This document shows, in pieces, positions 1,612 to 27,737 of a DNA stretch of 27,737 nt. A model generated the notes under the pieces. The model was not told where the DNA came from, did not search any database, and saw only the letters and a list, made by a program, of their open reading frames with translations. Source of the DNA: a virus (lineage: Duplodnaviria > Heunggongvirae > Uroviricota > Caudoviricetes); the IMG/VR virus record IMGVR_UViG_3300031951_000072, positions 64,001 to 91,737 of that record. The stretch is one strand, 5' to 3'. Both the position numbers and the translations under genes were made by a program. Every line of letters starts with the position of its first letter. The first letter of the stretch is position 1.

Positions 1612-1613
1612 TG

Positions 1614-1793: not shown

Positions 1794-1968
1794 TTTTATT
1801 CTTTCTTTCTTCTAAGATTGTTTTTCTTAATGCTAACATATCTTCCTTAATTTCAAGGGCAAGCTTCCTAGCTCTGGTTCCAGCACTATCATTACCTTGA
1901 CTAAACTTACGAAGTTCCATTGATATAGTCTCAGTTTTAGCTTTTAATTCATTAATAAATTTTTCCAT
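1786..1968 (-). CDS. Histone H1-like (Hc1 family) small DNA-binding protein
   Basis: Motif GNDSAGTRARKLALEI matches the GNKAAGTRARKxxLE signature of Hc1-family proteins of Bacteroidota/Chlamydia (recalled). Confidence 0.8.
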   Translation of the reverse strand: MEKFINELKAKTETISMELRKFSQGNDSAGTRARKLALEIKEDMLALRKTILEERKNKND

Positions 1969-2005
1969 AATTAATTCTATTTAAATTTATGTTTATTGTA
2001 AAGAT

Positions 2006-2452
2006 TTATCTTATAATATTTTTGTCCAACAATTTATAAAATCTCAAACATAAGTCTAATTCATATTTGGTATGAGGCTTGTAGTGATCAAAAATGCCTG
2101 AGAAATACCGAATTATTTCATTTTTTAACTTGGCTTCATCATGAGAATAATAAATCTCTAAGAAAAGAGTTTTAAAATATTCATAATGCTCACCTTCTTC
2201 TCTGAAATAGATGTTTTCTTTCTTAAAATTTTGAATGGTATTGTTCCAGCACCATTTAAAATGGTTAATGTTATCGTTTAATGATGTCGTGATCCTTGTC
2301 TCAACAGGAACAGAGGTTCCTCCAAGATATGTTTTTTTTATTAGATTAGTAAGAGAGATTAAAAAATCTAAAAAAAGTTCACTTTTTTCTGGTATTAAGT
2401 TATTAACGCTTAACCAGGTTTCGATATCTTCTTTAGTTATGTTTTTCGCCAT
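2006..2452 (-). CDS. Hypothetical protein (148 aa)
   Basis: Clean ORF, no recognised motif. Confidence 0.75.
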   Translation of the reverse strand: MAKNITKEDIETWLSVNNLIPEKSELFLDFLISLTNLIKKTYLGGTSVPVETRITTSLNDNINHFKWCWNNTIQNFKKENIYFREEGEHYEYFKTLFLEIYYSHDEAKLKNEIIRYFSGIFDHYKPHTKYELDLCLRFYKLLDKNIIR

Positions 2453-2454
2453 TT

Positions 2455-2487
2455 AAAAAAAAATTCCATAGATAAGTCTATGGAATT
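2455..2487 (-). terminator. Intrinsic terminator-like hairpin
   Basis: Perfect 11-bp stem AATTCCATAGA (2462-2472) / TCTATGGAATT (2477-2487) with a 4-nt loop, followed on the minus strand by a U-tract (A-run starting at 2455). Confidence 0.65.
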
Positions 2488-2518
2488 AATATAATAAAAA
2501 AAATAATTAAATTAAATA

Positions 2519-3556
2519 CTATTGTGTTGGTTTTGTGTAATTTGTTAAAACATTAATTCTATTGAACTCTTCATGTAATATTGTCTTTTCAGACTCATTT
2601 TTAGATTCTAACTTAGCTAATATATCCTGAGATGTCTTTTTAGTTTTAGCTTTACCTAAAGCACCCTTAGGCCCTAATTTACTACCAGCATAATCTATAG
2701 GTGTAGGATATCTTTTATATGACGCATTTTTTTGTTCCTGGCCGTAATAGTTGTTTTTATAATTTTTCATCATTCTCTCACCCAATTCACTTTCAACCGC
2801 ATTTGCATATTTTTGAGAATTACCTGATTTAGCATCACCTTTTAAATATCTCGCTATTCTCTCATCATCAAAATGTATTTCATCTGGTATTAAATTTGTC
2901 ATACCAGGATGTGAAAATGCGTCAACATATTCATCAACAGCATCTGAAGGGATATAGGCTTTCTTATCCATTTTAGCTAATTCACCATTACCCTTTGGAA
3001 ATCCTTTAGGGTTTGGATCAAATTTACCTTTAGATCCATCTTTAAGGTACTCATTCATTTTTTTAGCAACATCCTTAATAGCCTGGTTGTTTTCCTGCTT
3101 AGATTTTTTTAAAACTTTCTCTGTCTCAGCTAAACCTTTTGCTTTTTTTTGCTCAGAAACAATATTATATATCAAAAATCTAAGTTCAGATTCTGTCATT
3201 TTCATCGTCTTTTTCTTTGATTTTTTACCTCTATTTCTAAGCATTTCAAAATCTTCTCGATCTAATTTGTTATTACGATTTAAATCTATCTTATGCTGAC
3301 GGCCTTTTAATTCGTCATTTATATTATGTTTTTTATTTTTTGACTTTTTATTCCTTAACCTTTTAAAATCATCCCTATCCAATTTACCATTTTTATTCAT
3401 GTCTAGCTCCCGCTGACGGCCATGAAGCTCATCATTAATTATACTATCGTCAGTTTGCTCATTATTTAATCTTTCCTTTAAACGGGAAACTAGAGAGTTT
3501 GCTTTATCTTCCAAAGCCTCATTTATAATTTGTTGTGCTATTCTATCGTATCTCAT
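2519..3556 (-). CDS. Putative internal head/core protein with two EF-hand-like loops
   Basis: Duplicated segment containing DMNKNGKLDRDD and DLNRNNKLDRED; highly charged; many I/L-x-E motifs. ATG at 3556 is preferred over the TTG at 3559. Confidence 0.7.
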   Translation of the reverse strand: MRYDRIAQQIINEALEDKANSLVSRLKERLNNEQTDDSIINDELHGRQRELDMNKNGKLDRDDFKRLRNKKSKNKKHNINDELKGRQHKIDLNRNNKLDREDFEMLRNRGKKSKKKTMKMTESELRFLIYNIVSEQKKAKGLAETEKVLKKSKQENNQAIKDVAKKMNEYLKDGSKGKFDPNPKGFPKGNGELAKMDKKAYIPSDAVDEYVDAFSHPGMTNLIPDEIHFDDERIARYLKGDAKSGNSQKYANAVESELGERMMKNYKNNYYGQEQKNASYKRYPTPIDYAGSKLGPKGALGKAKTKKTSQDILAKLESKNESEKTILHEEFNRINVLTNYTKPTQ

Positions 3557-13088: not shown

Positions 13089-13946
13089 TCAAATTTTGTG
13101 TAATTTAAAATCGTATTGTAAAACACGATTTGTTATGTTTTGAGGAACCCTATACTCAGAATACATTGAGTCCTCATTCAAATGAACCACAATGCAACCT
13201 AATAATTTTGTATTTTCAAATTCAGTTCCTTCAAGCATTTTTAGAAGCAATTTCCCATATAATGGCAACTGTAAATAATAGTGCCCTAAAGCAGTATCGT
13301 CTATATCGTCAAAAGGTGGTTTTAACTTTTTAGTATATTTGTTAGGAACAAAATTCTTAGATTGATTCGTTTTCCAGTCTGTGATAGCAATTCCAATTTC
13401 ACCTCTAGATTTAGATTCAAATAACCATACTTTATCTGGTTGACCAACGTACCCCAATTCAGGATGACCTATTACCATCTCAGTATCCAATAATATACCA
13501 CCACGTTCTTTCATAAGTTTAAGATATTTGTTACCGGCGGATATCATTTTATCACTAGCTAATAACTGGTATCTATCACATTCAAAAACAGGTTCTCTAA
13601 GAGTTTTTCTTAAATTAAAAAGATCTACAGAAGTTTGCTCTAAAAAATAATGTACACGATTACCAAGATTGACAGCTTTATCTCCTGATTCTTTCCATTT
13701 AAGTAATAGTTCATTCTTTTTCTGTGTATTACCTTTTGATATTTGTTCAGAAATTTGTTCGGCATCAAACTCGTCATAAAATTTTTTAATAACTTTAGTA
13801 ACGGAAGGATAATTATCACGTATATTACCATTAGAATCTATCATATGGTAGATGTGTGTATCTTCAAAAAACTTTAGTGAAAGTTCCTCTCTTTTTGTTT
13901 CAAAAACTTTTCTAAGCTCATTAGCCGTGTCATTTATATTCATCAT
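13089..13946 (-). CDS. PD-(D/E)XK exonuclease (RecB-like)
   Basis: HIY..YPSVT, VH..LE, TEMVI, GQPD, TDWKTN and YLQLPLY motifs. Confidence 0.85.
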   Translation of the reverse strand: MMNINDTANELRKVFETKREELSLKFFEDTHIYHMIDSNGNIRDNYPSVTKVIKKFYDEFDAEQISEQISKGNTQKKNELLLKWKESGDKAVNLGNRVHYFLEQTSVDLFNLRKTLREPVFECDRYQLLASDKMISAGNKYLKLMKERGGILLDTEMVIGHPELGYVGQPDKVWLFESKSRGEIGIAITDWKTNQSKNFVPNKYTKKLKPPFDDIDDTALGHYYLQLPLYGKLLLKMLEGTEFENTKLLGCIVVHLNEDSMYSEYRVPQNITNRVLQYDFKLHKI

Positions 13947-15512: not shown

Positions 15513-15563
15513 ATAATAAATTATTGATACAATAATAGTTAAATATGTTGTAATTGTGAATTA

Positions 15564-17771
15564 TTAAAAATCCAATCTTACTGCAAATTGCTGAGTACCT
15601 TGCCTTTGTATAGGTGACTGCAACTTTGTTATTACAACCAAATCTTTATCGACATCAAACAAACCAACTTCAGTTATAAAACTATTTGTTCCTGGAACCC
15701 ATGTTGGGTTAGTTGTGTTTGTAAATTGTGTTGAAACTAAATTACATAAAAACCTCATTTCATAAATAGTTGCCTCAATATCTGTCTCGATATTTCCATA
15801 AAAAAAATACTCCTCACCAAAATTCAAAAGATCTTCTTGCCCTGATGGTTCTGGTAAAGGTAAATAATCTGCTAAATCATATGTATCGGCATTATTATAC
15901 ATATCGTAGCTAATAATGAATGTATTTGATGTCATAGCAGAAGGCGAAATTGCTCCATTGCAAGTATCACCGCTCACCCTATAAGTAAAATCAATTTTTT
16001 TCCAAGCTCCAGGCGAAGGTTGTGTTGTAGAACCAGAAACCAACTGAGCTAATACCATAAATTCATTCGCATTAAATCCACTAAAACAAGTGCAACCAGA
16101 ATTCATAAAAGGAAATTCCTCACCAAATTTAATAGCAACGTTTTGCCTGTCTTGATTACACTCATCACTAGGACCTTGCACTTTAGAATAATAATTACAA
16201 TGCAATGAGTCAGTAAATCCAAATGTTGAATTAAATCTATACGTAATATACATGTACTCTTGGTTATTACCTATAACACCAAAGTCATCAACGTCAGCAT
16301 CACACAAATTGGGGGCAACCAAAGACAAAGATGGTGCAGGTAATGTCCAGTTTCTATTTGATTTATACGATAAGGCTGCTACGATTTCGTCATCGTCAAA
16401 CACAATAGTTTTTATATCAGGAAATACTTTTCCTACTCTATTTGGTGTACCTAAGTTATTTACATGTGTATCCCACAAATGATAGTATCTTAGCCCTGGA
16501 TTATTCATATCATTATCCACAGCAGATTTCATATATTTGACTTGGAATAATCCCTGAACCCCAACATCCGGATCAACATAAAAAGTCTCCCCCATTTGAC
16601 CGGTAGATGACTTATGCCACATTAGCCAAGGTATTGAAACTTTAAAGTTTCTAGCAAAACCAGTCGTCTCTAAACTTTGCGGATCGAATGGTCTTAACGC
16701 AAATTTTTCACCATAAAAACTATCAATAGCATTGTTTGTATAATGAACTATAGCAATAGCCTTTTGCTCATTAGGATTTTGATAAACAGGTTTTTGATAT
16801 GAATTAAAATAATAAGTATCTGTTGTTTCAGCAGTTAATGCAGGTGAAACCCAAAATGTTTGACCGCTTAGTTCTTGATAGCCAAAATATTCTTTACTAC
16901 CAAGATATGTTCGTGAATTATATTTTGTGAAATCTTCATTCAAAGTAGAAACCACACCTGCCGGACTTACTGACCAAGGAATATTCATATTCCAAATTTT
17001 AACATCGGTGTTACCTAAATCACAAATAGATTCAAAGTTAATAACATCAGGTGGCCAGTATCCTTCAGGCGTATTGTAATCATATAACTCAGTCATACCT
17101 GAAGGGTATATTAATACTCTAGCCGTTCCACAACAACCCGACTCAGAATAATTAGGTATATTCCTATCCAAAGTTAGTGTATTACCTGATACTGATTGTA
17201 TTTTATAAGTTAAAATTGGAAAGTTTGCAGTTAACCCACTATTACATGAACCAACCCCATCATAATAAATCGTAGCAAAATGACCGGAAAATGTTACTCC
17301 TGTTGTTGTAGAACAAAAATCGTCTGTTAATGTTATAGTATTACCACTATTTGAACAAAGGTCCAAAATGTAATTAGAACTAATAGTGTATGCTGAAGAA
17401 GTTTTTGCCGTCCATGAATTAGCCGAACCACTAAAAAAGCCTCTTGGTGCTGCTGTGTTGAATACCGAATAAATTTGTGAGTCCTCAAACGCTAAACCAT
17501 ATGTATTGCCAGATGAACCAGATACATAATATGGATATTTTATATGCATTTTATTTGTCTCTGGATTCTGACTAGAATTTTGAGCATTATATGCGGCCTC
17601 TATTATATTATTGTTTGTTTGATTATAACCTGGTATCTGATTATATAGCACTTCACTATCCCCAATTTGGAAATAACGAATATCTAGTTTACCTTTAGAT
17701 AGCTTTAATCTACCGGTATCTGTAAACCTTGTATTTAATAGACCTGATGTATTTTTTATTATATATGCCAT
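15564..17771 (-). CDS. Putative baseplate/tail-associated structural protein (735 aa)
   Basis: N-terminus FTDTGRLKLSKGKLDIRYFQIGDSEV and C-terminus ITEVGLFD..KDLVVITKL...VRLDF resemble tail-fibre attachment (DUF3751-like) motifs; Ser/Thr/Gly/Asn-rich beta composition. Confidence 0.6.
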   Translation of the reverse strand: MAYIIKNTSGLLNTRFTDTGRLKLSKGKLDIRYFQIGDSEVLYNQIPGYNQTNNNIIEAAYNAQNSSQNPETNKMHIKYPYYVSGSSGNTYGLAFEDSQIYSVFNTAAPRGFFSGSANSWTAKTSSAYTISSNYILDLCSNSGNTITLTDDFCSTTTGVTFSGHFATIYYDGVGSCNSGLTANFPILTYKIQSVSGNTLTLDRNIPNYSESGCCGTARVLIYPSGMTELYDYNTPEGYWPPDVINFESICDLGNTDVKIWNMNIPWSVSPAGVVSTLNEDFTKYNSRTYLGSKEYFGYQELSGQTFWVSPALTAETTDTYYFNSYQKPVYQNPNEQKAIAIVHYTNNAIDSFYGEKFALRPFDPQSLETTGFARNFKVSIPWLMWHKSSTGQMGETFYVDPDVGVQGLFQVKYMKSAVDNDMNNPGLRYYHLWDTHVNNLGTPNRVGKVFPDIKTIVFDDDEIVAALSYKSNRNWTLPAPSLSLVAPNLCDADVDDFGVIGNNQEYMYITYRFNSTFGFTDSLHCNYYSKVQGPSDECNQDRQNVAIKFGEEFPFMNSGCTCFSGFNANEFMVLAQLVSGSTTQPSPGAWKKIDFTYRVSGDTCNGAISPSAMTSNTFIISYDMYNNADTYDLADYLPLPEPSGQEDLLNFGEEYFFYGNIETDIEATIYEMRFLCNLVSTQFTNTTNPTWVPGTNSFITEVGLFDVDKDLVVITKLQSPIQRQGTQQFAVRLDF

Positions 17772-17775
17772 AACG

Positions 17776-17782
17776 ATAAATA
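17776..17782 (-). promoter_or_regulatory. TATTTAT motif, putative late promoter element
   Basis: GATATTTATCGTTATG: motif 4 nt before ATG 17771. Confidence 0.45.
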
Positions 17783-17801
17783 TCCTATTTAATGTAAATT
17801 A

Positions 17802-19178
17802 TTAGCCACTAGGTGGGTTATTAGGGTCTTGCTGCGGTATTTGTTGAGGTATTTGCGTGGTACTCTCAATTATTGTTGTTGGTTGAATTATAACACAATC
17901 ATTATCCACCGTAATATTTGACAAATAAGCATTTATCCCAACCGTACCTCTTGTATAACATAATGGATCGAATGTGAAGCCAGGATCAATATCTATTGTA
18001 TATTCAATGTAACCAACAATATTTGATGTGTTATTACCTGTTATGGCTGTAGCAGAATATATATCATATGCAGCATATACATCATGTATCGGATTACATT
18101 GTGACGTAGATATATTGATGAATGGCCCACTATCTATTATTGACATTGTTTTTTGAATATTATTCACACTAATACTATGCCCTGTTGTTATAAAACTAAC
18201 TGTTCCAGGCTCAGAATAGGTTTTAGTGTATGTTACAACATAATCAAACTCAATATTAACACCTACAGGCAATAATGATGTATCAATAGTAAAGTCGATT
18301 TTGTATTTTGTTAAGTCATTTATAGTTGTACCAACTCTATCCGGGCCAGCAGTAACAACCATCGGTAATTCATAAGTTTTTGGTTGAGATGGTGATAGTG
18401 TAACGTCACAACTAGTTGTATTACCTGATGAATCTTTAGCATAGACTGTATATGCCCCAGAAAATAACCCATTAAATATCCCAACATTAATAAAATTAAC
18501 ATTATCTAAAGAATATTGCCAAGGAGGATTACCACCAGTTGCCACCGAAGTTATTGACCCATCATTTTCGTTTACACATGATGGACTATTAAAATTACAC
18601 TTTATACTATATGTCTTATCTGCACTTTGACATTGACCCTCTGTTGATTTACAACTAAAAAATTGAGCGTTATTACCAAAGACAAACCATCCTGTCAATG
18701 GGGTATCTTTCGGGTCTGAGCTTCGTATAATTAAGCTAGGATAATCAGGTATTGGGTCTAGCTCCCAATATTGATTTATAAAATTCCATCTGGCATAATA
18801 GTTTATCAGATTTATTGTCGTAAAATACTCAGGTTTACCATTATAAGAGTTGCCGTTATAACAAAATGTATATCTTTTAAGCGTATTTGTTCTTGAATTT
18901 GTAATTGATAAACAAAAACAAGGATATGTTTTAATTGGATCTGAAATGTTTATTGTATTATACAAGCCACATAAATTGTTATATAATAATATTTTTTTAC
19001 TTGTATCTGGGACTACAACTAAAACCCCTGTTATTAACTCCGAAAAAGTTAATCCTGTAGCAAATTCTGTTGTTAAATATTTAGTAGCCAAACTACTAGA
19101 TGATATATTATCATAATACACCGAAAAAGTTCCGTCAGGAGTTCCTGCTGTTATTGTTATATTAAATATCCTATTCAT
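17802..19178 (-). CDS. Putative virion structural protein with SprB-like repeat (458 aa)
   Basis: True start is ATG 19178 (MNRIFNI), just after the upstream TAA. Contains CVNENDGSITSVATGGNPPWQYSLD...FNGLFSGAYTVYAKDSSG. Confidence 0.7.
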   Translation of the reverse strand: MNRIFNITITAGTPDGTFSVYYDNISSSSLATKYLTTEFATGLTFSELITGVLVVVPDTSKKILLYNNLCGLYNTINISDPIKTYPCFCLSITNSRTNTLKRYTFCYNGNSYNGKPEYFTTINLINYYARWNFINQYWELDPIPDYPSLIIRSSDPKDTPLTGWFVFGNNAQFFSCKSTEGQCQSADKTYSIKCNFNSPSCVNENDGSITSVATGGNPPWQYSLDNVNFINVGIFNGLFSGAYTVYAKDSSGNTTSCDVTLSPSQPKTYELPMVVTAGPDRVGTTINDLTKYKIDFTIDTSLLPVGVNIEFDYVVTYTKTYSEPGTVSFITTGHSISVNNIQKTMSIIDSGPFINISTSQCNPIHDVYAAYDIYSATAITGNNTSNIVGYIEYTIDIDPGFTFDPLCYTRGTVGINAYLSNITVDNDCVIIQPTTIIESTTQIPQQIPQQDPNNPPSG

Positions 19179-19179
19179 A

Positions 19180-20094
19180 TTATGGTGTCGGAGTTGGCGT
19201 AGGTGTTGGTGTTGATGTCGGAGTAGGACTAACTGTAGGTGTTGGTGTTGATGTTGGTGTCGGGCTAGGAGATATTGTTGGTATTGAACAAGTGCCAATA
19301 TTTAAAACAGACCCCAAAGAATTTGTTTGTATCCAATAAATACCGTTTGAATAATACCCTTCAACTACAGGCATTGTTAATTCATAATCATAATAAATGA
19401 TATCCCCACTTTGCATTTCAAATATTTGTGAAACTGTTGACCAGTATTCTTTTGTTTCACCAGAACATGATGACAAGATAGTTGTTCCGCTACCTAATAA
19501 CAAATAGTTAAGTTCACTAACAGAGCCAGAAAAAATACAATCTAATGGTTCTATTAATTCGCAGCTAACGGTTGTTATAAAGTCATAATATTTATCAGTA
19601 ATTGTGGCATTATATGTACCTGCACTCAAGTTATATATTGTTGTACCAGTAGCTGTGGTATTATTAGGTAATGACCATACAACATAATATGGTGCTGTAC
19701 CCCCAGTTATTGCTAAAGATAATATTCCACTATTAGGACTATTAACGTCAGGATTTATTGCAATACACTGAGCACCTAATGGAAATAATGTTATTGGTTC
19801 ACATTCGTTATATGAAACCCCTGGTATCGGAGGTGGAGGTAATGGCGTTGGCTCTGGCCCTGGACATGGCAAGCATCCTGAATATGAACATGTCATACCA
19901 GATCCAGCATCAACCAAAGGTATATCATCATTTAGAATGGTAAAATATACCTTAATATCTGGCTCTTCAATAACTTTGTAACAAAAATTAATTGGCTTGC
20001 TGATTAATAAATTACCAACAGTGTATTTTGTTCCTGATTTTATTTTATATATTTGATTATCACAGCATCCTGTAACATAGCTACTTAAATTCAT
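19180..20094 (-). CDS. Cys-rich putative virion protein with SprB-like repeat and Pro-Thr tail (304 aa)
   Basis: Start ATG 20094 (MNLSSY). GILSLAITGGTAPYYVVW...NLSAGTYNATITD; C-terminal PTPTSTPTPT tract. Confidence 0.7.
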   Translation of the reverse strand: MNLSSYVTGCCDNQIYKIKSGTKYTVGNLLISKPINFCYKVIEEPDIKVYFTILNDDIPLVDAGSGMTCSYSGCLPCPGPEPTPLPPPPIPGVSYNECEPITLFPLGAQCIAINPDVNSPNSGILSLAITGGTAPYYVVWSLPNNTTATGTTIYNLSAGTYNATITDKYYDFITTVSCELIEPLDCIFSGSVSELNYLLLGSGTTILSSCSGETKEYWSTVSQIFEMQSGDIIYYDYELTMPVVEGYYSNGIYWIQTNSLGSVLNIGTCSIPTISPSPTPTSTPTPTVSPTPTSTPTPTPTPTP

Positions 20095-20099
20095 ATAAT

Positions 20100-20318
20100 T
20101 TATATTACAATTAAAGATTTTATCACACAATTATTCCCATCTAATACCCGGATACCAACTTCACTTAAATTATTGTATGGTTCTGGAACTAAAAAAGAAT
20201 ATGGTATGTCAGCATCATTTATTGTTGTAACGTATGCACACATGTTATATGTATTGTCACAAATATATACTGTGTATGGTTGTGTTCCGATTAAGTCTGT
20301 AATAGTTATCTCTTTCAT
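20100..20318 (-). CDS. Small beta-rich putative structural protein (72 aa)
   Basis: GTQPYTVYIC...VLDGNNC, resembling a degenerate SprB/Ig-like module. Confidence 0.65.
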   Translation of the reverse strand: MKEITITDLIGTQPYTVYICDNTYNMCAYVTTINDADIPYSFLVPEPYNNLSEVGIRVLDGNNCVIKSLIVI

Positions 20319-20324
20319 ATTATT

Positions 20325-22115
20325 TTAACTTACACATGTTCCCCAAACTATTGTCACAACAGTAGATCCTATTAATATTGTTGACCCACTAGACGGTATG
20401 GATGTTCCATTTATTTTTACATTATATAATGTGTATCTAATCGGAGTGCCTCCTCCTCCTGAATTCCAATAACCTGTTTTAGTGTCTGGAGTTAAAGATA
20501 CTATCCCAGAATTACCAGTGTTAAATGTTACTAGACTGCTCAGATTATTATATTGAGCACCAGCAACACCTGATGTACAACCTATATCATCATAACCATC
20601 ACCAAAAACTGTTGAAACTGTTAAGTTACCTGTTATAGGTGTATTTAGTTCCGCAACAAATATTGGGAACGATGAACTAGATATATTGTCCATTGTTAAA
20701 TATAATGTTGGGATAACGTCTGTCGGTGTTGGTGTTGGTGTTGAAGTCGGTGTATTCGTAGGAGTGCTTGTTGGTGCCGGAGCAGGTGTCGAAGTTGGGC
20801 CTGTTGCCGTTGGAGATAATGTAGGTGTTGGTGATATCGTGCTTGTTGGTGTTATTGTCGGTGTAGGTGTTGGCGTTGGAGTTATTGAACAGTTATCACA
20901 ACCTGGACCTAAAACCCATATTATGTCATTGAGGATAGCATTTGACGAATTACTTGATAATGACTCGTATGTTACACATTTTGAAACGCCATTTATTACA
21001 CAATTAAATGTAACTCCAGTCTCAATTGATAATCCTGAAAATACCAATGAGTCAACAACATAGTATGTGTCTCCTGATATACAATCAACTAGTTTTTTTG
21101 TTTTAGTATCTGTAAATGTATCATCAACTAAAGTATATGTTACATCACCACTAAAGCAAACGCTATAACCCGTTATTGGTGTTGCCGTAGGTGTCGCACT
21201 AGGTGTTGGTGTAGGTAATGTTGTAGCACTTAAAGAAATACTAGATAACGAACAATCAGATGTCGGCGTTGGTGTCGGTGTTGGTGTTGGAGTAGATGTC
21301 GGTGTAGGGCTTATTGTTGCTGTTGGTGTTGGTGTTATTATCTCACAATTAAAATACGCATTAAAATCAAAATCGTCGCATATTGCAGGTGTTGGCGTTG
21401 GTGTTACAACACAAACTCCTTCTGTTAATTCAGATAATGAAATGTCTGGGCAATTTTCGTAACAAGGAACTTTACCAAATAAAAAACAATCTCCACCCAA
21501 ACTATCAGATAAACACCATTTATACCCTGTATTATATAAATACCCTATTTGATCTGTACCCCCAGTATAATACGCATATCCATTATAGTTACCAACTTTA
21601 TTATAGGTCCCATCATTATCAAAATAATTATTAGTATCTAAGCAATATTGGTTAATCGGACATTCAGGCCCTATATACGTAGGTGTCGGTGTTGGTGATG
21701 GTGTAGGTGTAGGCGTTTGTGTTGGTGTAGGTGTAGGGCATGTTATGCAGCCTTCACAACTAACTTGCTGGACAAATATACCTGTTGTCCCATCATATAC
21801 TGTTCCTCCACCTAAATTATCTATATAGGTGCAACCAGTATATCCTGAAACAGTAACGTGATAAAAGTTAGAAACTAATTGTGCCGGAATACCACTAACT
21901 GTAAATGTTATGCCACTATCACAACAATCCGTAAAATTGTATTGATAACTAGCACAGGCTGGACTACAACTCATGTCAGTTAATGTTATTCCAGAATATG
22001 AGTAATCGTCATTTAAACAAATTGGTGTACCAATAGTAGATCCGCTTTGGAAATAACCGCAACAATCTGTATATTGCCAGGAGCTAGAATTAGTTACACC
22101 AGATAGACAAGCCAT
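20325..22115 (-). CDS. Cys-rich, mucin-like Pro-Thr repeat putative virion fibre protein (596 aa)
   Basis: About 30 Cys in globular segments separated by five PT-rich tracts. Confidence 0.75.
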   Translation of the reverse strand: MACLSGVTNSSSWQYTDCCGYFQSGSTIGTPICLNDDYSYSGITLTDMSCSPACASYQYNFTDCCDSGITFTVSGIPAQLVSNFYHVTVSGYTGCTYIDNLGGGTVYDGTTGIFVQQVSCEGCITCPTPTPTQTPTPTPSPTPTPTYIGPECPINQYCLDTNNYFDNDGTYNKVGNYNGYAYYTGGTDQIGYLYNTGYKWCLSDSLGGDCFLFGKVPCYENCPDISLSELTEGVCVVTPTPTPAICDDFDFNAYFNCEIITPTPTATISPTPTSTPTPTPTPTPTSDCSLSSISLSATTLPTPTPSATPTATPITGYSVCFSGDVTYTLVDDTFTDTKTKKLVDCISGDTYYVVDSLVFSGLSIETGVTFNCVINGVSKCVTYESLSSNSSNAILNDIIWVLGPGCDNCSITPTPTPTPTITPTSTISPTPTLSPTATGPTSTPAPAPTSTPTNTPTSTPTPTPTDVIPTLYLTMDNISSSSFPIFVAELNTPITGNLTVSTVFGDGYDDIGCTSGVAGAQYNNLSSLVTFNTGNSGIVSLTPDTKTGYWNSGGGGTPIRYTLYNVKINGTSIPSSGSTILIGSTVVTIVWGTCVS

Positions 22116-22132
22116 GAATAATGTTTTATACT

Positions 22133-22139
22133 ATAAATA
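22133..22139 (-). promoter_or_regulatory. TATTTAT motif, putative late promoter element
   Basis: Intergenic, 17 nt upstream of ATG 22115, at the head of the structural operon. Confidence 0.45.
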
Positions 22140-22193
22140 ACTAGAATTTAATTTTTTTGATAAAATCAATGAAAAATAATAAGCTAATTTATT

Positions 22194-22201
22194 TAATTTT
22201 G
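22194..22201 (+). promoter_or_regulatory. Bacteroidota sigmaA-type -7 element (TAATTTTG) for the glycosyltransferase operon
   Basis: TAnnTTTG match 30 nt upstream of ATG 22232 in the divergent intergenic region; no clear -33 element; AT-rich context weakens it. Confidence 0.4.
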
Positions 22202-22231
22202 AATTAAAAAACATTATTTTTTTAACAAAAA

Positions 22232-23173
22232 ATGAAAAAAGTATTCCTAGATTTATCCGAAGCAAAAGGCTTAGGTGATACGCTATCAGCAACCCCTGTT
22301 ATTAGGAAATTAAAAGAATCATATGGTTCCAAAATATATGTCATAACGAATTATCCTGAGTTATTCCATAATAACAGAAATGTTGAAAAAGCTTATTATG
22401 TAAATGCAATTAATATAGAAAATGTAAAATCAACACAGATATATCATTCATCATTCAATAATGTTGGTAAGAAAAATGAGTTTGGTGTTGAATTTAAAAG
22501 TAATGTATGTGATATAAGACAATATCATGCTATGACGCTTGGCTTTCAATTATCTGAAGATGATTTGTATACAGAATATGAACCCGATGAATATATACCA
22601 ATTGATGGACTACCAGAAAAATTCGTTTTAATCCATCCCGCAGAAAATTGGCCCTCAAGAACCTGGGATAAAGACAAATGGGCCGATCTTGTTAATTTAT
22701 TATGCGGAAATAATATAAATGTTGTTATTACAGGTAAAAACACCGAGGAATATGGATTTTTTCACATTACAAAAAAAATATTTAGCATAAAACAAGACTT
22801 GGTTTTAGATTTATCAAACAAAAGTAATATATCGCAAACCTGGCACTTAATTGATAAATCTTCTTGTTTTGTAACAATGGATTCAGGACTGCTGCATTTA
22901 GCAGGAACAACAGATGCCGAAATAATTCAACTCGGAAGCTCCATAAATAACGAATTTAGAGCCCCATATAGATATATGTCACAAGATTACAAATACCATT
23001 ATATCTCAGGTCCTTGTGGAATATTTTGTGCTTCAGACATGAAATATGGTGTTAGAGAATGGGGTACAATACATGGTGTTCCCCCATTAATTGGCTGCTT
23101 AGAAAATAAACCTGAATTTGAATGCCACCCATCGGTAATTGATGTTTACGAAACAATTATGAAAATCATATGA
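22232..23173 (+). CDS. GT9-family (heptosyltransferase-like) glycosyltransferase
   Basis: GLGDTLSATP, LIHP..WPSRTW..DKW and FVTMDSGLLHLA are GT9 signatures; four-Cys C-terminal motif. Confidence 0.85.
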   Translation: MKKVFLDLSEAKGLGDTLSATPVIRKLKESYGSKIYVITNYPELFHNNRNVEKAYYVNAINIENVKSTQIYHSSFNNVGKKNEFGVEFKSNVCDIRQYHAMTLGFQLSEDDLYTEYEPDEYIPIDGLPEKFVLIHPAENWPSRTWDKDKWADLVNLLCGNNINVVITGKNTEEYGFFHITKKIFSIKQDLVLDLSNKSNISQTWHLIDKSSCFVTMDSGLLHLAGTTDAEIIQLGSSINNEFRAPYRYMSQDYKYHYISGPCGIFCASDMKYGVREWGTIHGVPPLIGCLENKPEFECHPSVIDVYETIMKII

Positions 23174-26100
23174 ATAATAAACTTAAATTTGATAAAGCGT
23201 ATATTTTGTATGCAACCGAAAATTATTTTCCAGTAATAGAATGTACTATAACTAGTATTAGGAAGTTCTCTAAATTACCGATAATAGTTTATTCTATAAA
23301 TAAAAAATTTGAAACATCTAATAATGACGTATATTGTGAAGTAATGTATAATATACATTTAAGGCATAAAAATAATGATGATTTATACATTAAAGGATTG
23401 GATGAATCTAATTTTTATATTAAAAGAGAAAACCCTCACATATATTCAATATTAATCCAAAAACCATTTATAACAATACATGCCTTAGAAAATTATGCTA
23501 AAACAGTATTCTTTATTGATGCCGACTCAGTTATATTCAACAATATTGACATTTTTTTTGATTTATATCCAGAAAATGAAAATATTCCTTATTTTACCAA
23601 AGGCATTTATGATTTTTTAGCATATAACGAAATTGGTCATGAAGACGGTTTAGAAAATACCGTTGAACACAAATTATGCGAATTATTGAATATTGATCAA
23701 TCATTTAGGCTAAATACAAGTTATAGGCAATCTGGTTATTATATATCAGGCCAGAAGAGTATACCATTTTTAAATGAATGGTATATTACTTGCGGAATGG
23801 ATATAATATTTAGGAACCATGCAATTTATGCCCCTTATAACGAAGAAACCGTATTAAACTGCTTATTATGGAAATATAAAATAGATAAGGGTTTGCCTTT
23901 AATATATGTTAACGGATCGTTAGATAGAATTGATATTATCAATGATAACAAAAATTATTTAGGTATTGAAAACGAAATACAAGAATGGTTTAAACTACCT
24001 CCCCAGAAAAATTCTGTGTATTTTATACATGGTGAAAAAAGACCAAATATTATTATGGATATGATAAATAAAATTGATGAAATAAAAAACCGAGATAGCG
24101 GAAAAAAAACAAATATATTGTATTTAGCCCCTCATTTATCAACAGGTGGTATGCCAGCTTTTCTACTAAAAAGAATTGAGGCCATAAAAAAATACTATAA
24201 TGACGAATTTAATATTTTTGTTGTTGAATATACAAATTATGGCGATGCATTTTCAGTGCAAAAAGATATGATAAAAACTATGATCGATTCTGATAAGTTT
24301 TATTCCTTAGGATATTTAGGTGAACCTATTGATAATAAATACAAGTTATTGGATATTATTAAATATAATAATATAGACGTAGTACATATTGATGAACCAA
24401 TTGAAGGCTTTGACTCATTTAATCCTGTGCCAAGAGATTTAATTAACCTACTATATTCTGAGGACAGATCTTGGAATATTGTCGAAACATGCCATAATGT
24501 TGTATTTAATCCTAAACAATCAAAAGAATTTCATCCTGACGCATATGCTTTATGCTCAAAATATCATAAAAATGTAACTTTTGCTGATGAAAAAGAAATT
24601 TTAGAGTTAATTGAATATCCGATTGAAAATTTCAAAAAAACAAAAGCTGAAAAATTAAAAGCGCAATTAAGTTTAAATTTAGATCCTGAAGTAAGACACG
24701 TATTAAATGTCGGTATTTGGACACCAGGTAAAAATCAAAAAGAATTCGTAGAAATTGCAAAATTGTTTGAAAACAATAACAATTTACATTTTCATGCTAT
24801 TGGTTCCTTAGCACCTAATTTTGAAGACTATTGGGGCCCAATTGTTGAAAATTTACCTAAGAACATAACTGTATGGGGTGAAAGAAATGACGTTCATGCA
24901 TTTATGGCAGCTTCTGATGTTTTAATATTTAACTCAACATTTGAGTGTAACCCAATAACTCTAAAAGAAGCTATATCTTTTGGATTGAAAATATTAGCAA
25001 GAGATCTAAATGTTTATTTAGACACATACTCACAATATATTATACCAATAGATGATAATATTTTAGACACAAAAAATAAATTAGAAAAAATTGTAAATTC
25101 AAAATTATTTTCATATACAGCAACTAATGAACAGAATTCTTTTGCGGAAAAACATGTTAATTTATATCTAAATTTAAAAAACAAAGAATCCAAATATAAA
25201 TTAGATATAGCTCAATCATTTGTTGGTCAACCTTATTTTGAAATAAAAGGAAAGGATAATAACACATATCACGTAGAATTTATTGATGAAAATAACACAC
25301 TTGTTTATTCTGAAAATATCACCACAAATACTTGGATAAGACTTAACCGAAAATATTATACAAAATGGAAAACTAATGTATCTATTGATGATAAAATTAT
25401 ATATTCAAAAACATTATCATTAAAAAATGAAAGAGTTTATATCGCATTCGATAGTAACTCGTTAGGCGATACAATTGCTTGGATGCCATATTGCTTAGAA
25501 TTTAAGAAAAAACACAATTGTTATTTGATTGTATCAACATTTTGGAATAAATTATTTGTTGATGTTTACCCTGAAATTGAGTTCGTAACTCCTGGTGATA
25601 TTGTTTATGACTTATACGCGATGTATAACATAGGATATTATTATGATAATAATAGTGCCCCAGAAAACCCTCAAATAATACCCTTGCAAAAGGTGGCAAC
25701 AAACATTTTAGGATTAAATTACCATGAAATTTCTCCAAGGATTAAATTTAATCCGGGGAAAAGACCTATTGAATCTAGATACGTTACCATAGCAACAGAT
25801 TCTACAGCCCAACTAAAATATTGGAATTATCCTAGAGGTTGGGAAATACTTTGTGAGTATCTTCAAAATTGCGGATATAAAGTTATCTCTGTCTCAAAAG
25901 AAGCGTCTAAAATTAATGGGGTTATAAACTTATCCGATACATCAATAGAAAATACTATGAATGTGATTCATCATAGTGAGTTTTTAATCGGTTTATCTAG
26001 CGGTCTATCATGGCTTGCTTGGGCATTAGATAAACATGTTGTTATGATCGCTAATTTCACGGATGAGGACCAAGAATTTAAATCAAATTGTACTAGAATT

Positions 26101-26280
26101 ATTAATAAATCAGTATGTAACAGTTGTTGGAATAACCCATTATTTAAATTCGACAAATCAGATTGGAACTGGTGTCCAGAACATAAAAATACTCCTAGGC
26201 AATTTGAATGCCATAAATCTATAACGCCAGATATGGTGTTTCAAAGAATAAAAAAAGACATATTTAAGTATGAAAATTGA
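23170..26280 (+). CDS. Three-domain glycosyltransferase: GT-A (DxD) + GT4 + TibC/Aah-type protein O-heptosyltransferase
   Basis: aa ~1-300: FIDADS DxD, PYNEETVLN. aa ~314-665: PHLSTGG, KNQ, ECNPITLKE (ExxxxxxxE). aa ~677-1036: SLGDTIAW, IATDSTAQLKYWN, IGLSSGLSWLAWA, CNSCW..WCPEHKNTPRQFEC. Confidence 0.88.
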   Translation: MNNKLKFDKAYILYATENYFPVIECTITSIRKFSKLPIIVYSINKKFETSNNDVYCEVMYNIHLRHKNNDDLYIKGLDESNFYIKRENPHIYSILIQKPFITIHALENYAKTVFFIDADSVIFNNIDIFFDLYPENENIPYFTKGIYDFLAYNEIGHEDGLENTVEHKLCELLNIDQSFRLNTSYRQSGYYISGQKSIPFLNEWYITCGMDIIFRNHAIYAPYNEETVLNCLLWKYKIDKGLPLIYVNGSLDRIDIINDNKNYLGIENEIQEWFKLPPQKNSVYFIHGEKRPNIIMDMINKIDEIKNRDSGKKTNILYLAPHLSTGGMPAFLLKRIEAIKKYYNDEFNIFVVEYTNYGDAFSVQKDMIKTMIDSDKFYSLGYLGEPIDNKYKLLDIIKYNNIDVVHIDEPIEGFDSFNPVPRDLINLLYSEDRSWNIVETCHNVVFNPKQSKEFHPDAYALCSKYHKNVTFADEKEILELIEYPIENFKKTKAEKLKAQLSLNLDPEVRHVLNVGIWTPGKNQKEFVEIAKLFENNNNLHFHAIGSLAPNFEDYWGPIVENLPKNITVWGERNDVHAFMAASDVLIFNSTFECNPITLKEAISFGLKILARDLNVYLDTYSQYIIPIDDNILDTKNKLEKIVNSKLFSYTATNEQNSFAEKHVNLYLNLKNKESKYKLDIAQSFVGQPYFEIKGKDNNTYHVEFIDENNTLVYSENITTNTWIRLNRKYYTKWKTNVSIDDKIIYSKTLSLKNERVYIAFDSNSLGDTIAWMPYCLEFKKKHNCYLIVSTFWNKLFVDVYPEIEFVTPGDIVYDLYAMYNIGYYYDNNSAPENPQIIPLQKVATNILGLNYHEISPRIKFNPGKRPIESRYVTIATDSTAQLKYWNYPRGWEILCEYLQNCGYKVISVSKEASKINGVINLSDTSIENTMNVIHHSEFLIGLSSGLSWLAWALDKHVVMIANFTDEDQEFKSNCTRIINKSVCNSCWNNPLFKFDKSDWNWCPEHKNTPRQFECHKSITPDMVFQRIKKDIFKYEN

Positions 26281-26635
26281 GGTATCAATTGGAGAAATTG
26301 TAGATAAGTTATCTATTTTACAAATAAAAAAAGAAAATATATCCGATGTTAATAAATTGTATAACGTAAATAATGAATTTAGTTATTTACATGATATTGT
26401 ATTCAATGAGCTTAAAATCAGTGATGACGATTATTATAATCTTTTAATTATTAATAAAAGCTTGTGGGATATTGAAGATCATATACGAAAAAAAGAAATC
26501 GATAAATCATTCGATGATGAGTTTATCGATTTAGCTAGAAAAGTTTATATTACAAACGACAAAAGATCCGTTATAAAAAAAGAAATAAATATAAAATATA
26601 ACTCATTATTTGTTGAAGAAAAATCTTACAAATAA
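26270..26635 (+). CDS. DUF6165-like protein
   Basis: VSIGEIVDKLSILQIK...LWDIED.IR...FIDLARKVYITNDKR..IKKEIN...EEKSY matches the DUF6165 pattern as recalled. Confidence 0.75.
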   Translation: MKIEVSIGEIVDKLSILQIKKENISDVNKLYNVNNEFSYLHDIVFNELKISDDDYYNLLIINKSLWDIEDHIRKKEIDKSFDDEFIDLARKVYITNDKRSVIKKEINIKYNSLFVEEKSYK

Positions 26636-26672
26636 AAAAAAATGTGGCAGAATTAACTGCCACATTTTTTTT
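26634..26672. terminator. Bidirectional intrinsic terminator between convergent genes
   Basis: A9-TGTGGCAG-AATTAA-CTGCCACA-T8, spanning the gap between the two convergent stop codons. Confidence 0.9.
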
Positions 26673-27737
26673 ATGATAATATAGTGAAAACTAATTGTGG
26701 ATGGAAATATAATGTATATTCACTTAAAGCTACGCCAATTATCTGTACTACGTCATCTTTGGCTGATGGCGGTGTTGTAGTTATATTTCCTGCTGTAGTA
26801 CTTAAATACCAAATAGTATTAGGACCACCATATGCTCCAACACCTGAAGACACTTTTGTTACAAACCCGTGCATCAAAAAGTTTCCTGCTGCACCACTAC
26901 TTAAGCTTGTTTCAAGACATAAAGCTATTGCAGGAGCTGTAGAGCCCGTATCTGCGTCAGCTTTTTTAAATTGACCAAGTGTTGCGTCAATATATACAAC
27001 ATCACCAAACGCTAATGATTCACCAGCAGTAAATCTGGTTATCATACCCCAACCCGCAGAGCCTGTTGTTCCTGTTGAAATTGGGTATATTGAGGTTATA
27101 CCTGTAAGTGCTGGTGATGTTCCCGAAGTGCCAGATGTTCCACTCGAACCTGATGATCCGCTTGAGCCAGAAGACCCTGATGAACCACTTGAACCTGAAG
27201 AGCCAGAAGATCCTGATGTACCAGAAGATCCCGACCTACCGGATGTACCTGATGTTCCACTCGAACCTGATGATCCGCTTGAGCCAGAAGACCCTGATGA
27301 ACCACTTGAACCTGAAGAGCCAGAAGATCCTGATGTACCAGAAGATCCTGACCTACCGGATGTGCCTGATGTACCACTCGAACCTGATGATCCGCTTGAG
27401 CCAGAAGACCCTGATGAACCACTTGAACCTGAAGAGCCAGAAGATCCTGATGTACCAGAAGATCCTGACCTACCGGATGTGCCAGAAGTACCAGAAGAGC
27501 CTGACGAACCGCTCGAACCAGATGAGCCAGAAGAGCCTGATGACCCGCTTGAACCACTCGAACCAGATGAGCCAGATGTACCAGAAGAGCCTGATGACCC
27601 GCTTGAACCACTCGAACCAGATGAGCCAGATGTGCCAGAAGAGCCTGATGACCCGCTTGAACCACTCGAACCAGATGAGCCAGATGTACCAGAAGAGCCT
27701 GATGACCCGCTTGAACCGCTCGAACCAGATGAGCCAG
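26671..27737 (-). CDS. Gly-Ser-Ser/Gly-Thr-Ser repeat protein with C-terminal capsid-cement/decoration-like domain (5' end outside window)
   Basis: The frame of 26671..27045 stays open to the window edge: ...GSSGTSGTSGTSPALTGITSIYPISTGTTGSAGWGMITRFTAGESLAFGDVVY... About 68 uninterrupted G-X-S triplets in 27121-27735. Confidence 0.85.
   Translation of the reverse strand, partial: GSSGSSGSSGSSGSSGTSGSSGSSGSSGSSGSSGTSGSSGSSGSSGSSGSSGTSGSSGSSGSSGSSGSSGSSGSSGSSGSSGTSGTSGRSGSSGTSGSSGSSGSSGSSGSSGSSGSSGSSGTSGTSGRSGSSGTSGSSGSSGSSGSSGSSGSSGSSGSSGTSGTSGRSGSSGTSGSSGSSGSSGSSGSSGSSGSSGSSGTSGTSGTSPALTGITSIYPISTGTTGSAGWGMITRFTAGESLAFGDVVYIDATLGQFKKADADTGSTAPAIALCLETSLSSGAAGNFLMHGFVTKVSSGVGAYGGPNTIWYLSTTAGNITTTPPSAKDDVVQIIGVALSEYTLYFHPQLVFTILS
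27136..27483. repeat. 117-bp tandem repeat, 3 near-identical copies (coding)
   Basis: CACTCGAACCTGATGATCCG recurs at 27141, 27258 and 27375. Confidence 0.9.
27527..27737. repeat. 54-bp tandem repeat, at least 4 copies (coding, last copy truncated by window)
   Basis: CCAGAAGAGCCTGATGACCC recurs at 27527, 27581, 27635 and 27689. Confidence 0.9.

Follow-up and report, generated by a model that had tools for sequence, protein, structure and literature searches.

The window, that is, the whole stretch of DNA analysed here (27,737 nucleotides), forms the final 27.7 kb of an IMG/VR contig (91.7 kb) from an uncultured large phage, with an estimated completeness of 31%. ORF calls and translations placed every feature named by an earlier sequence-only reading where that reading had put it. 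A glycosyltransferase cassette (22232-26635, plus strand) and a collagen-like gene, referred to as the GSS gene, are convergent and lie tail-to-tail, with a bidirectional terminator between them. Because the window closes the contig, the GSS gene is truncated by the contig end. The features are as follows.

19180-22115, minus strand: two Cys-rich proteins with Pro-Thr (PT) linkers (316 and 596 aa), divergent from the cassette
19180-20130, minus strand: ORF of the 316-aa Cys-rich protein, with a C-terminal PT tail
20325-22115, minus strand: ORF of the 596-aa Cys-rich protein, with PT linkers
22232-23173, plus strand: ORF of P0002, a GT9-fold glycosyltransferase of 313 aa (Pfam Glyco_transf_9, E 9.8e-15)
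23170-26280, plus strand: ORF of P0001, a three-domain transferase of 1036 aa
23170-24099, plus strand: P0001 residues 1-310, probable GT-A/GT8-like nucleotide-sugar transferase domain with a DAD (DxD) motif (Atlas lead)
24100-25236, plus strand: P0001 residues 311-689, GT4 (GT-B) glycosyltransferase domain (Pfam)
25237-26280, plus strand: P0001 residues 690-1036, TibC/Aah-type (BAHT) domain, predicted protein O-glycosyltransferase (TIGR04414, 4rap, AF2 model)
26270-26635, plus strand: ORF of P0003, a small helical DUF6165 accessory protein of 121 aa (Pfam DUF6165, E 6.5e-8)
26635-26672, no strand assigned: bidirectional intrinsic terminator lying between the convergent stop codons, its 16-pair hairpin bordered by an A-run and a T-run
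26671-27737, minus strand: GSS collagen-like ORF, open-ended
26671-27114, minus strand: C-terminal non-repeat part of the GSS protein, continuing the repeat frame with a linker and a roughly 125-aa globular domain
27115-27737, minus strand: collagen-like repeat region of 69 Gly-X-Y triplets (Pfam Collagen, E 1.5e-30)

The C-terminal domain of P0001 is a genuine member of the BAHT family by sequence, motifs and fold. Residues 698-1029 matched model positions 27-373 of 374 of TIGR04414 with 307.2 bits (E 1.4e-91), and a genome-wide profile search gave 308 bits for the domain, where the curated NCBIfam cut-off is 200 bits. Sequence comparison with TibC (4rap) gave an E value of 1.3e-54. The domain comprises a beta-barrel, a GT-B core, a four-Cys iron finger and a shortened thumb hairpin, and its AF2 model (pLDDT 84) was aligned by VIA-align to TibC residues 34-392 with a Z score of 31.9 and an rmsd of 2.8 Å over 337 of 347 residues. 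The second-best GT9 structure reached Z 20.1, and the LPS heptosyltransferases scored about 20 or less, with 18-19 for WaaC and WaaF. The profile search and the model thus bear out the TibC/Aah-type assignment of the sequence-only reading. More than 4,700 metagenome protein clusters match the domain at E 1e-10 or better.

The SLGD, QLKYWN and GLSSGLSWLAWA motifs and the four cysteines were all found in the P0001 translation. The cysteines (C983, C986, C1002 and C1014) have the same x2/x15/x11 spacing as Cys339/342/358/370 of TibC, which identifies an iron finger by sequence, and they are invariant in 178 phage-type sequences. Equally invariant in this set are D767, which lies in SLGD and aligns with the catalytic base Asp110 of TibC, and T879, K883 and W948, the counterparts of Thr226, Lys230 and Trp305, which contact the donor phosphate and heptose (TibC Cys numbering and residue roles from PMC4358343). 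The thumb region, with Phe265/Val266 at its tip in TibC, shows about 10 gap positions in the alignment and no long hairpin in the AF2 model. Because the BAHT domain is fused to two other domains, a TibC-like dodecameric ring is doubtful.

Arg286 of TibC, which contacts adenine N1 and underlies ADP specificity, aligns with Thr929 of P0001. The equivalent residue is Thr in 172 of the 178 phage-type sequences, Ala in three, Val in three and Arg in none, and neither Arg nor Lys occurs in the SIENTMNVIHH stretch around Thr929. Owing to this replacement, ADP-heptose is not assured as the donor in the phage clade. GmhA was not found in five phage records (the window's contig and four complete related phages), and RfaE-domain-II-like matches appeared in two of the five, at sub-threshold level only. 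With Arg286 replaced and GmhA not found in these records, the heptose considered by the sequence-only reading is not established as the transferred sugar and can be carried only as an assumption.

The remaining cassette members are also predicted sugar-transfer or accessory proteins. P0002 has no beta-barrel; its sequence includes a BAHT-like motif, GLGD, and its C-terminal Cys tetrad follows a spacing of its own. Its best profile matches were LPS heptosyltransferase models, below their cut-offs, while TIGR04414 gave 25.9 bits and an hhalign comparison with the BAHT profile gave a probability of 94%. Homologues with 49-63% identity to P0002 occur in many BAHT loci. Residues 1-310 of P0001, probably a GT-A/GT8-like domain, had no Pfam match, even at E 5; an Atlas feature search pointed toward viral GT8/Nucleotid_trans clusters and provides a lead only. 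More than 40 related loci retain this domain in fused or split form, and nearly all related loci retain the GT4 domain (Pfam Glycos_transf_1, E 1.2e-8; Glyco_trans_1_4, E 8e-8). DUF6165 adjoins the BAHT cassette in more than 40 loci; its Atlas clusters are mostly viral, and DUF6165-GT9 fusions exist in bacteria. Relatives conserve the cassette as a group of several transferases in varying arrangement, accompanied by sugar methyltransferases, as expected for the building of an oligosaccharide.

On the other side of the terminator, the GSS gene encodes 69 unbroken Gly-X-Y triplets, close to the roughly 68 G-S-S/G-T-S triplets counted earlier, and continues past the contig end, beyond which its N-terminus lies. 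Ser/Thr fill 98% of the X and Y positions; Pro does not occur there, Arg occurs only three times, and the known triple-helix stabilizers (Pro/Hyp and Lys-Asp/Glu pairs) are absent. Pfam Collagen (PF01391) matched the gene in four stretches (E 1.5e-30). The repeat is composed of tandem units of 117 bp (3.4 copies) and 54 bp (4.1 copies) that are 94-96% identical. Unit lengths are multiples of 9 bp, and where the repeat is interrupted in relatives the triplet register holds (ATS or QTS replacing GTS). Uninterrupted Gly-X-Y runs reach 919 triplets in relatives, and ORF length reaches 3192 aa.

Matches of the GSS gene to PHROG tail-fibre families involved the collagen repeats only. The C-terminal part has homologues at the C-terminal ends of other phage proteins with collagen-like repeats and matched Pfam Phage_cement_2 weakly (E 0.099; AF2 pLDDT 62). 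Most BFVD structure matches of the C-terminal domain at E ≤ 0.001 were phage proteins without a name, and tail-fibre-like names appeared from rank 6 onward; no PDB match was as good as E 0.001, and those obtained were mostly capsid decoration proteins and also included the phi29 head-fibre base. In-frame globular domains are likewise present in the fibres of relatives, and at one related locus (L051) the fibre end resembles, as judged by eye, the intramolecular-chaperone domain of tail fibres.

The two genes on the far side of the cassette had been described as Pro-Thr mucin-like virion genes. The PT runs exist, as several linkers in the 596-aa protein and as the C-terminal tail of the 316-aa protein, but these stretches are short linkers between Cys-rich modules rather than mucin-like bulk, and a virion location for these proteins is without support. 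PT-run ORFs are rare in related BAHT loci, and only three to four loci have a homologue of the window's PT proteins in the vicinity of a BAHT gene. The proposed linkage of the transferase with PT-repeat genes is not supported, and the Pro-Thr genes are neighbours, not conserved partners, of the cassette.

Co-occurrence with the GSS-type gene was analysed in both directions. In the forward direction, 80 viral loci with a BAHT homologue, including the window and one MAG contig, were grouped into 44 clusters at 90% identity. Most of the clusters with enough downstream flank had a collagen-like ORF downstream (74-98% Ser/Thr at X/Y, no Pro), which was almost always convergent with the cassette; no collagen-like ORF was found in some clusters with full 10-kb flanks (L025, L031, L059, L015 and L064). 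When whole records were scanned, all collagen genes lay within about 11 kb of BAHT in 9 of 10 records. In the converse direction, 72 viral records picked solely by a (G-S/T-S/T)10 DNA pattern were set against 72 control records with proline-type collagen. BAHT was carried by 27 of the former and none of the latter (Fisher p = 7e-10), a comparison between samples of related, non-independent phages in which the control contigs are smaller (median 24 kb versus 39 kb) and from other phage types. Six of the eight Ser/Thr-pattern records of at least 90% completeness carried BAHT; it was not found in 45 of the 72, two near-complete records among them. Near-complete genomes with the pair (CheckV completeness of at least 90%) measure 66 kb, 69 kb, 108-117 kb, 170 kb, 249-322 kb and 548 kb, and the cultured Microcystis phage Mel-JY01 has it as well. 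BAHT is statistically linked with Ser/Thr-only collagen-like genes, and the co-occurrence anticipated for the GSS gene was strongly positive both ways.

The recurrence of this pairing across many phages suggests that the phage probably sugar-coats its own fibre. Based on the sequence evidence, we assign a probability of roughly 65% to the reading that the cassette O-glycosylates the phage's own collagen-like fibre; adjacency is no proof of substrate. The GT9-like enzyme, the GT-A-like/GT4/BAHT fusion and the DUF6165 protein would constitute a cytoplasmic, phage-encoded protein O-glycosylation system, with the convergently transcribed, proline-free Gly-Ser/Thr-Ser/Thr fibre protein as its presumed substrate. 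The BAHT domain would attach the first sugar to Ser/Thr hydroxyls in the repeat, much as TibC and Aah modify serines of their adhesins, and the GT4, GT-A-like and GT9-like enzymes would then extend the glycan. The outcome would be a trimeric, densely sugar-coated fibre, probably borne on the virion, and the sugars may also stabilize a triple helix in which both proline and charged pairs are lacking. The earlier proposal of glycans built on the phage's own Ser/Thr-dense fibres thus gains from the BAHT identity and the GSS-gene linkage and loses the PT genes as partners.

Alternatively, the cassette could act on the surface of the infected host cell, altering LPS (core or O-chain), capsule or some other glycan and thereby blocking superinfection or changing receptors, and its position beside the fibre gene would merely reflect a shared variable host-recognition region. 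GT9 is primarily an LPS heptosyltransferase family, in line with the sub-cut-off profile matches of P0002. Glycosyltransferases are common in the host-recognition regions of phages, and those that cluster with tail fibres in pelagimyophages have been read as host LPS modifiers (PMC7029224). However, the BAHT domain passes the BAHT cut-off and resembles TibC, which glycosylates proteins, much more closely than it does WaaC or WaaF, and the association is specific to Ser/Thr-only collagen, which mere co-location would not predict. We therefore regard a host-surface role as unlikely.

The cassette might instead act on other phage proteins, such as the capsid, the tail tube or the neighbouring Pro-Thr-linker proteins, with the GSS fibre not its main target. 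PT linkers are classic O-glycosylation sites, and the PT genes lie directly upstream of the cassette. Mycobacteriophages encode glycosyltransferases that O-glycosylate their own structural proteins (Freeman et al. 2023, Cell Host Microbe, cited in PMC12619734); according to these secondary accounts, the targets are the C-terminal tails of capsid and tail-tube subunits, whereas a collagen-like fibre is presumed here, and no BAHT enzyme and no collagen-like substrate are named in these accounts. Given the scarcity of PT-run ORFs and PT homologues in related loci, where the sole conserved neighbour is the Ser/Thr collagen-like gene, we consider such targets quite improbable. We consider it very improbable that the Gly-Ser-Ser region serves as a flexible spacer, without structure or modification, next to unrelated transferase cargo: Gly/Ser-rich sequences are typical flexible linkers and the near-identical units mark a recent tandem expansion, but Gly occupies each third position without a break here and over far longer runs in relatives, the 9-bp-multiple units and the interruptions keep register, and the linkage with BAHT runs both ways.

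Under the fibre-glycosylation reading, the presumed substrate is a collagen-like Gly-Ser/Thr-Ser/Thr rod, whereas the known substrate of TibC is a beta-helix; no AIDA-type autotransporter with strand-loop-strand repeats, the BAHT substrate type, was found in the window. The TibC-TibA and Aah-AIDA-I systems of E. coli (BAHT; TIGR04414; PDB 4rap/4rb4; PMC4358343) share family, fold, beta-barrel and GT-B core with the phage domain, which keeps the iron-finger spacing, the catalytic Asp and the Thr/Lys/Trp donor contacts. In those systems, a cytoplasmic enzyme is encoded beside a Ser-rich, repetitive surface protein that it hyperglycosylates, and the phage gene pair is similar, with fibre modification presumed. 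The phage enzyme differs in being phage-encoded, in forming the last domain of a three-transferase fusion, in its shortened dodecamer-building thumb hairpin and in having Thr at the adenine-contact Arg286.

A second likeness is BclA of the Bacillus anthracis exosporium, described as a collagen-like protein of prokaryotic origin that is free of hydroxyproline, has Gly-X-Y repeats rich in Thr and forms hair-like trimeric filaments on the particle surface. BclA is a bacterial spore protein with mostly Gly-Pro-Thr repeats, whereas the phage protein is without any proline and its relatives exceed 3000 residues. The BclA repeats are O-glycosylated with oligosaccharides that contain methylated sugars (Daubenspeck et al. 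2004, cited in PMC11923368), and no BAHT-type enzyme was reported in the literature consulted on BclA. Glycosylated Thr can take over the triple-helix-stabilizing role of hydroxyproline (PMC11923368), as in Riftia cuticle collagen and the Ac-(Gly-Pro-Thr)10 peptide (Bann et al. 2000, cited in PMC11923368). These are an animal collagen and a model peptide, both with proline, and in that account neither is tied to the BAHT family.

Such stabilization by sugars on Thr offers a reason why a collagen of the Ser/Thr-only type should be linked to a transferase. A bolder version, which we put forward only tentatively and think may well fail, is a sugar-dependent phage collagen: a dodecamer-free TibC-type enzyme fused to extending transferases would hyperglycosylate a proline-free, charge-free (Gly-Ser/Thr-Ser/Thr)n chain, and the glycans would permit triple-helix folding, a third stabilizing way besides hydroxyproline and salt bridges that would be widespread in aquatic phages and whose donor need not be ADP-heptose. 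If triple-helical, the 919-triplet run would make a glycan-coated rod of about a quarter of a micrometre, estimated from the usual triple-helix rise per residue.

To our knowledge, the BAHT family is known only from a few pathogen adhesin systems, and our literature search found no published description of a phage BAHT system; O-glycosylation of a phage collagen-like fibre would give a known enzyme family a new substrate in a new setting. If the reading is correct, BAHT would be a widespread phage tool for sugar-coating virion fibres, relevant to host recognition, to protection against proteases and defences and to the stability of very long proline-free collagen helices. Many phage glycosyltransferases now read as LPS or DNA modifiers would then be reassigned. 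Because the cultured phage Mel-JY01 has the pair, fibre glycosylation is directly testable. The reading would also flag a systematic annotation gap: fibre genes have frequently been split or annotated on the wrong strand, and GenBank PP395634 and JGI gene calls provide examples.

The window makes up the terminal 27.7 kb of its parent contig (91.7 kb, classified as viral in IMG/VR), which was estimated by CheckV to be 31% complete and so indicates a large phage. The window has a G+C content of about 30%, and the minus strand of its left two-thirds carries replication and recombination genes encoding a primase, an exonuclease, an SbcCD-like nuclease, a RuvC-like resolvase, and a sigma factor. 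The features that concern us here are the following.

15564-17771, minus strand: 735-aa ORF without matches
17802-19298, minus strand: 498-aa ORF with one SprB repeat
19180-20130, minus strand: 316-aa ORF, Cys-rich modules and Pro-Thr linkers
20325-22115, minus strand: 596-aa ORF, Cys-rich modules and Pro-Thr linkers
22232-23173, plus strand: 313-aa GT9-fold transferase
23170-26280, plus strand: 1036-aa three-part transferase
26270-26635, plus strand: 121-aa DUF6165 protein (Pfam)
26635-26672: 16-pair hairpin, A run on one side and T run on the other
26671-27737, minus strand: collagen-like fiber ORF, stop at 26671, open at the contig end

The three plus-strand genes, referred to here as the cassette, overlap by 4 and 11 bases and therefore probably form one operon. 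The hairpin looks like a bidirectional terminator. A promoter scan returned matches no more common than in shuffled sequence (40 versus 37). As listed, the 498-aa ORF (TTG start, 19298) overlaps the Pro-Thr tail of the 316-aa ORF in a different frame (19180-19298); translation probably begins instead at an ATG near 19178 (MNRIFNIT), immediately past the upstream stop codon.

None of the three cassette proteins had a match in PHROGs. The 313-aa protein has a GT9 fold (Pfam E value of 9.8e-15) without a beta-barrel, and its GLGD motif aligned with the catalytic motif of the profile for the BAHT family, the TibC/Aah-type protein O-glycosyltransferases (hhalign probability of 94%). Its C terminus carries four cysteines (C-x3-C-x21-C-x8-C) followed by FECHPS, an echo of FECHKS in the BAHT domain of the neighboring protein, and this distinctively spaced tetrad may form another metal finger. 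The 121-aa protein belongs to DUF6165, whose clusters are mainly viral and for which bacterial fusions to GT9 exist; DUF6165 is therefore functionally tied to this enzyme class.

For residues 1 to 310 of the 1036-aa protein, a Pfam search was empty even at an E value of 5. This region contains a DAD motif, and a language-model search placed it near viral GT8/Nucleotid_trans (nucleotide-diphospho-sugar transferase) clusters, an assignment that we treat as a lead only. Residues ~311 to 689 form a GT4 domain (Pfam). The sequence-only reading had assigned the C-terminal domain to the TibC/Aah type, and this was borne out: residues 690 to 1036 scored 307 bits against TIGR04414 (curated cutoff of 200) and matched the TibC crystal structure with an E value of 1.3e-54. 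An AlphaFold model of the domain (42-sequence alignment, pLDDT of 84) superimposed on TibC with a Z score of 31.9 and an rmsd of 2.8 Å over 337 of 347 residues, the beta-barrel included, compared with Z scores of at most 18 to 20 for LPS heptosyltransferases.

The residues needed in TibC have been reported (PMC4358343), and we located their counterparts in the alignment and in 178 phage-type homologues. The catalytic Asp110, Thr226, Lys230, Trp305, and the four iron-finger cysteines (TibC numbering) were invariant in all 178, and the spacing of the iron-finger cysteines in the phage domain was identical to that in TibC. At the stereoselectivity position, Pro300 of TibC is replaced by Ser, as it also is in Aah. 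The phage domain is thus a true member of the BAHT family. The thumb hairpin, which in TibC joins dimers into a dodecamer (PMC4358343), is about 10 residues shorter in the phage domain, which probably does not form a TibC-type ring. Arg286 of TibC touches adenine N1, stated as the basis of ADP-sugar use (PMC4358343); the corresponding residue is Thr in 172 of the 178 homologues and Arg in none. In a search for a phage-encoded ADP-heptose pathway, GmhA (TIGR00441) had no match either in the parent contig of the window or in four related phages with complete genomes, and RfaE-domain-II-like matches, all below the cutoff, were present in two of these records; the result says nothing on host supply.

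The fiber ORF that converges on the cassette contains 69 contiguous Gly-X-Y triplets in which 98% of the X and Y positions are Ser or Thr; three positions are Arg, and Pro is absent. The repeats are followed by a linker and then by a globular domain of ~125 aa. The repeat includes tandem units of 117 bp and 54 bp, each a multiple of 9, and its repeats are recent tandem expansions. Counting both strands, four or more of the six reading frames lack stops across the repeat (27096-27737), and one of them, on the plus strand (27128-27736), encodes an acidic Pro/Glu/Asp repeat. We take the Gly-Ser-Ser (GSS) frame to be the real one because it alone runs on into a nonrepeat domain ending at the terminator, because this end domain is homologous to the C termini of other collagen-like phage proteins, and because the same type of frame extends over more than 3000 codons, across several globular domains, in relatives. 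On a 140-kb contig from JGI 3300045505 (L086), two minus-strand collagen-like Ser/Thr ORFs of 1261 and 805 aa, separated by an N run, occupy 15516-21186; over them, the source gene calls place genes for 810-aa and 723-aa proteins on the plus strand, which suggests that gene callers tend toward the wrong strand over such repeats.

A word-based homologue search returned two matches to the C-terminal domain of the fiber, and its AF2 model was mediocre and of low confidence (pLDDT of 62). Matches of this model in the PDB were all weaker than an E value of 0.001, and nearly all were capsid decoration proteins, together with the base of the phi29 head fiber; Pfam Phage_cement_2 matched below threshold, and matches in BFVD were mainly unnamed phage proteins, with tail-fiber-like names among the others. 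In one relative (L051), the fiber end resembles by eye the intramolecular-chaperone domain of tail fibers. In L233, a control contig without BAHT, a collagen-like protein of the proline type ends in a stretch (13114-13362) that matched the C-terminal domain of the window fiber (30% identity over 86 aa, E value of 0.002), and the end domain is therefore common to fibers of both collagen types.

Scanning IMG/VR for the BAHT domain yielded 161 contigs, from which 80 loci were kept; at 90% identity these formed 44 clusters, a figure to which the window and a single MAG contig contribute. Where the downstream flank was long enough, most clusters carried a collagen-like ORF with 74 to 98% Ser/Thr at X and Y and no proline, located downstream of the BAHT gene, nearly always convergent, and reaching up to 3192 aa and 919 contiguous triplets. 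In five clusters with full flanks, a collagen-like ORF was absent. When whole records were scanned, all collagen matches lay at most ~11 kb from the BAHT gene in 9 of 10 records, and in the tenth (322 kb), which had three collagen genes, one lay less than 5 kb from it. A 299-kb complete viral record (G047:C1) has a 5316-aa open frame (~16 kb) with collagen matches at about 152000-154600, within ~17 kb of its BAHT gene and among the longest seen.

For the converse test, viral contigs were chosen, blind to the enzyme, with a DNA pattern encoding ten Gly-(Ser/Thr)-(Ser/Thr) triplets. A TIGR04414 match was present in 27 of 72 wholly searched records (26 above the cutoff) and in 6 of the 8 that were at least 90% complete. 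Control contigs were chosen by a proline-containing collagen pattern and had a median Ser/Thr fraction at X and Y of 0.18, versus 0.87 in the test set; BAHT was found in 0 of 72 control records, 12 of them at least 90% complete. The difference is significant by Fisher's test (27/72 versus 0/72, P = 7e-10), with the provisos that related phages are nonindependent samples and that the control contigs were smaller (2.2 versus 4.5 Mb in total) and came from other phage types. The linkage between the transferase and GSS genes that the sequence-only reading proposed thus holds across relatives in both directions. The triplet DNA pattern also matched IMG/VR contigs labeled as giant-virus MAGs (L094 and L141).

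The pairing recurs in near-complete genomes (CheckV, at least 90%) of 66, 69, 108 to 117, 170, 249 to 322, and 548 kb. Cassette order varies by lineage: BAHT may be a separate protein or part of a fusion with one, two, or more further domains, GT9 and DUF6165 occur on either side of it, and one relative's cassette has two extra GT2 enzymes and two methyltransferases. The range of genome sizes and this reshuffling argue against a purely ancestral explanation. A GTDB scan with exact-word patterns for this BAHT subtype, which covered 185,579 prokaryote species through their representative genomes, found only two loci, in Sediminibacterium sp. (L083) and an uncultured Bacteroides sp. (L084), both Bacteroidota MAGs. 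Both could be phage contigs that were binned with bacterial ones, and they give a hint, though no proof, of the host phylum. In L084, Ser/Thr collagen-like ORFs lie 0.6 and 7 kb downstream.

The Pro-Thr genes, also proposed as glycosylation targets, did not show such linkage. ORFs with Pro-Thr runs were rare in the 80 related loci, and we rejected these genes as conserved partners; homologues of the 596-, 316-, and 498-aa proteins were found near BAHT in only 3 to 4 loci, and none of the 735-aa protein in any of the 80. We treat the Pro-Thr genes as neighbors of the cassette. Judging from the SprB repeat, their products are possibly adhesin-like.

On the reading that the evidence supports best, the fiber protein encoded next to the cassette would be O-glycosylated by the cassette enzymes in the host cytoplasm. 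Modification would take place before or during assembly, with the BAHT domain priming Ser/Thr residues of the fiber and the remaining cassette transferases lengthening the glycan. A Gly-Ser-Ser polymer lacks every known triple-helix stabilizer. Glycosylated Thr is a documented stand-in for hydroxyproline: (Gly-Pro-Thr)10 folds only if galactosylated, and BclA and the cuticle collagen of a vent worm are natural cases (as cited in PMC11923368). The sugars may therefore have a structural role in the fiber besides a protective one.

It is possible that the capsid, the tail tube, or the Pro-Thr linkers are glycosylated in addition. Phage glycosyltransferases beside fibers are usually interpreted as modifiers of host LPS or the host surface (PMC7029224), yet we consider this improbable for the cassette, since it would leave unexplained both the restriction of the link to Ser/Thr-type collagen and the much greater similarity of the enzyme to TibC, which modifies protein, than to WaaC. 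That the GSS region is a plain flexible spacer is unlikely because its triplet register is strict.

In literature searches on TibC/BAHT in phages and on collagen-like fibers with glycosyltransferases, we found no description of a system such as fiber glycosylation by this cassette, in agreement with the initial view that no characterized BAHT-based virion glycosylation system is known. A 2025 study of large freshwater Bacteroidota phages ("moraphages") lists glycosyltransferases in four core groups, assigns them no role, and mentions neither collagen nor heptosyltransferases (PMC12619734). The components are each known, namely BAHT enzymes, glycosylated collagen-like proteins (BclA), and mycobacteriophage virion glycosylation; what would be new here is therefore the substrate class and the setting of a known enzyme family.

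The cultured Microcystis phage Mel-JY01 (PP395634) carries the same pair and so provides an experimental handle. A protein of 1226 aa that its record labels an FkbM methyltransferase ends in a BAHT domain (41% identity), and ~1.7 kb upstream of this gene lies a collagen-like Gly-Thr/Ser-Ser ORF (2-3049, plus strand) of at least 1016 aa and ~200 triplets that is already open where the linear record starts. Over this ORF, the annotation has two hypothetical proteins on the minus strand (1-651 and 739-2298), and only the 3' end (2519-3052) is assigned to the plus strand. The fiber gene of Mel-JY01 is probably misannotated and truncated by the start of the record.
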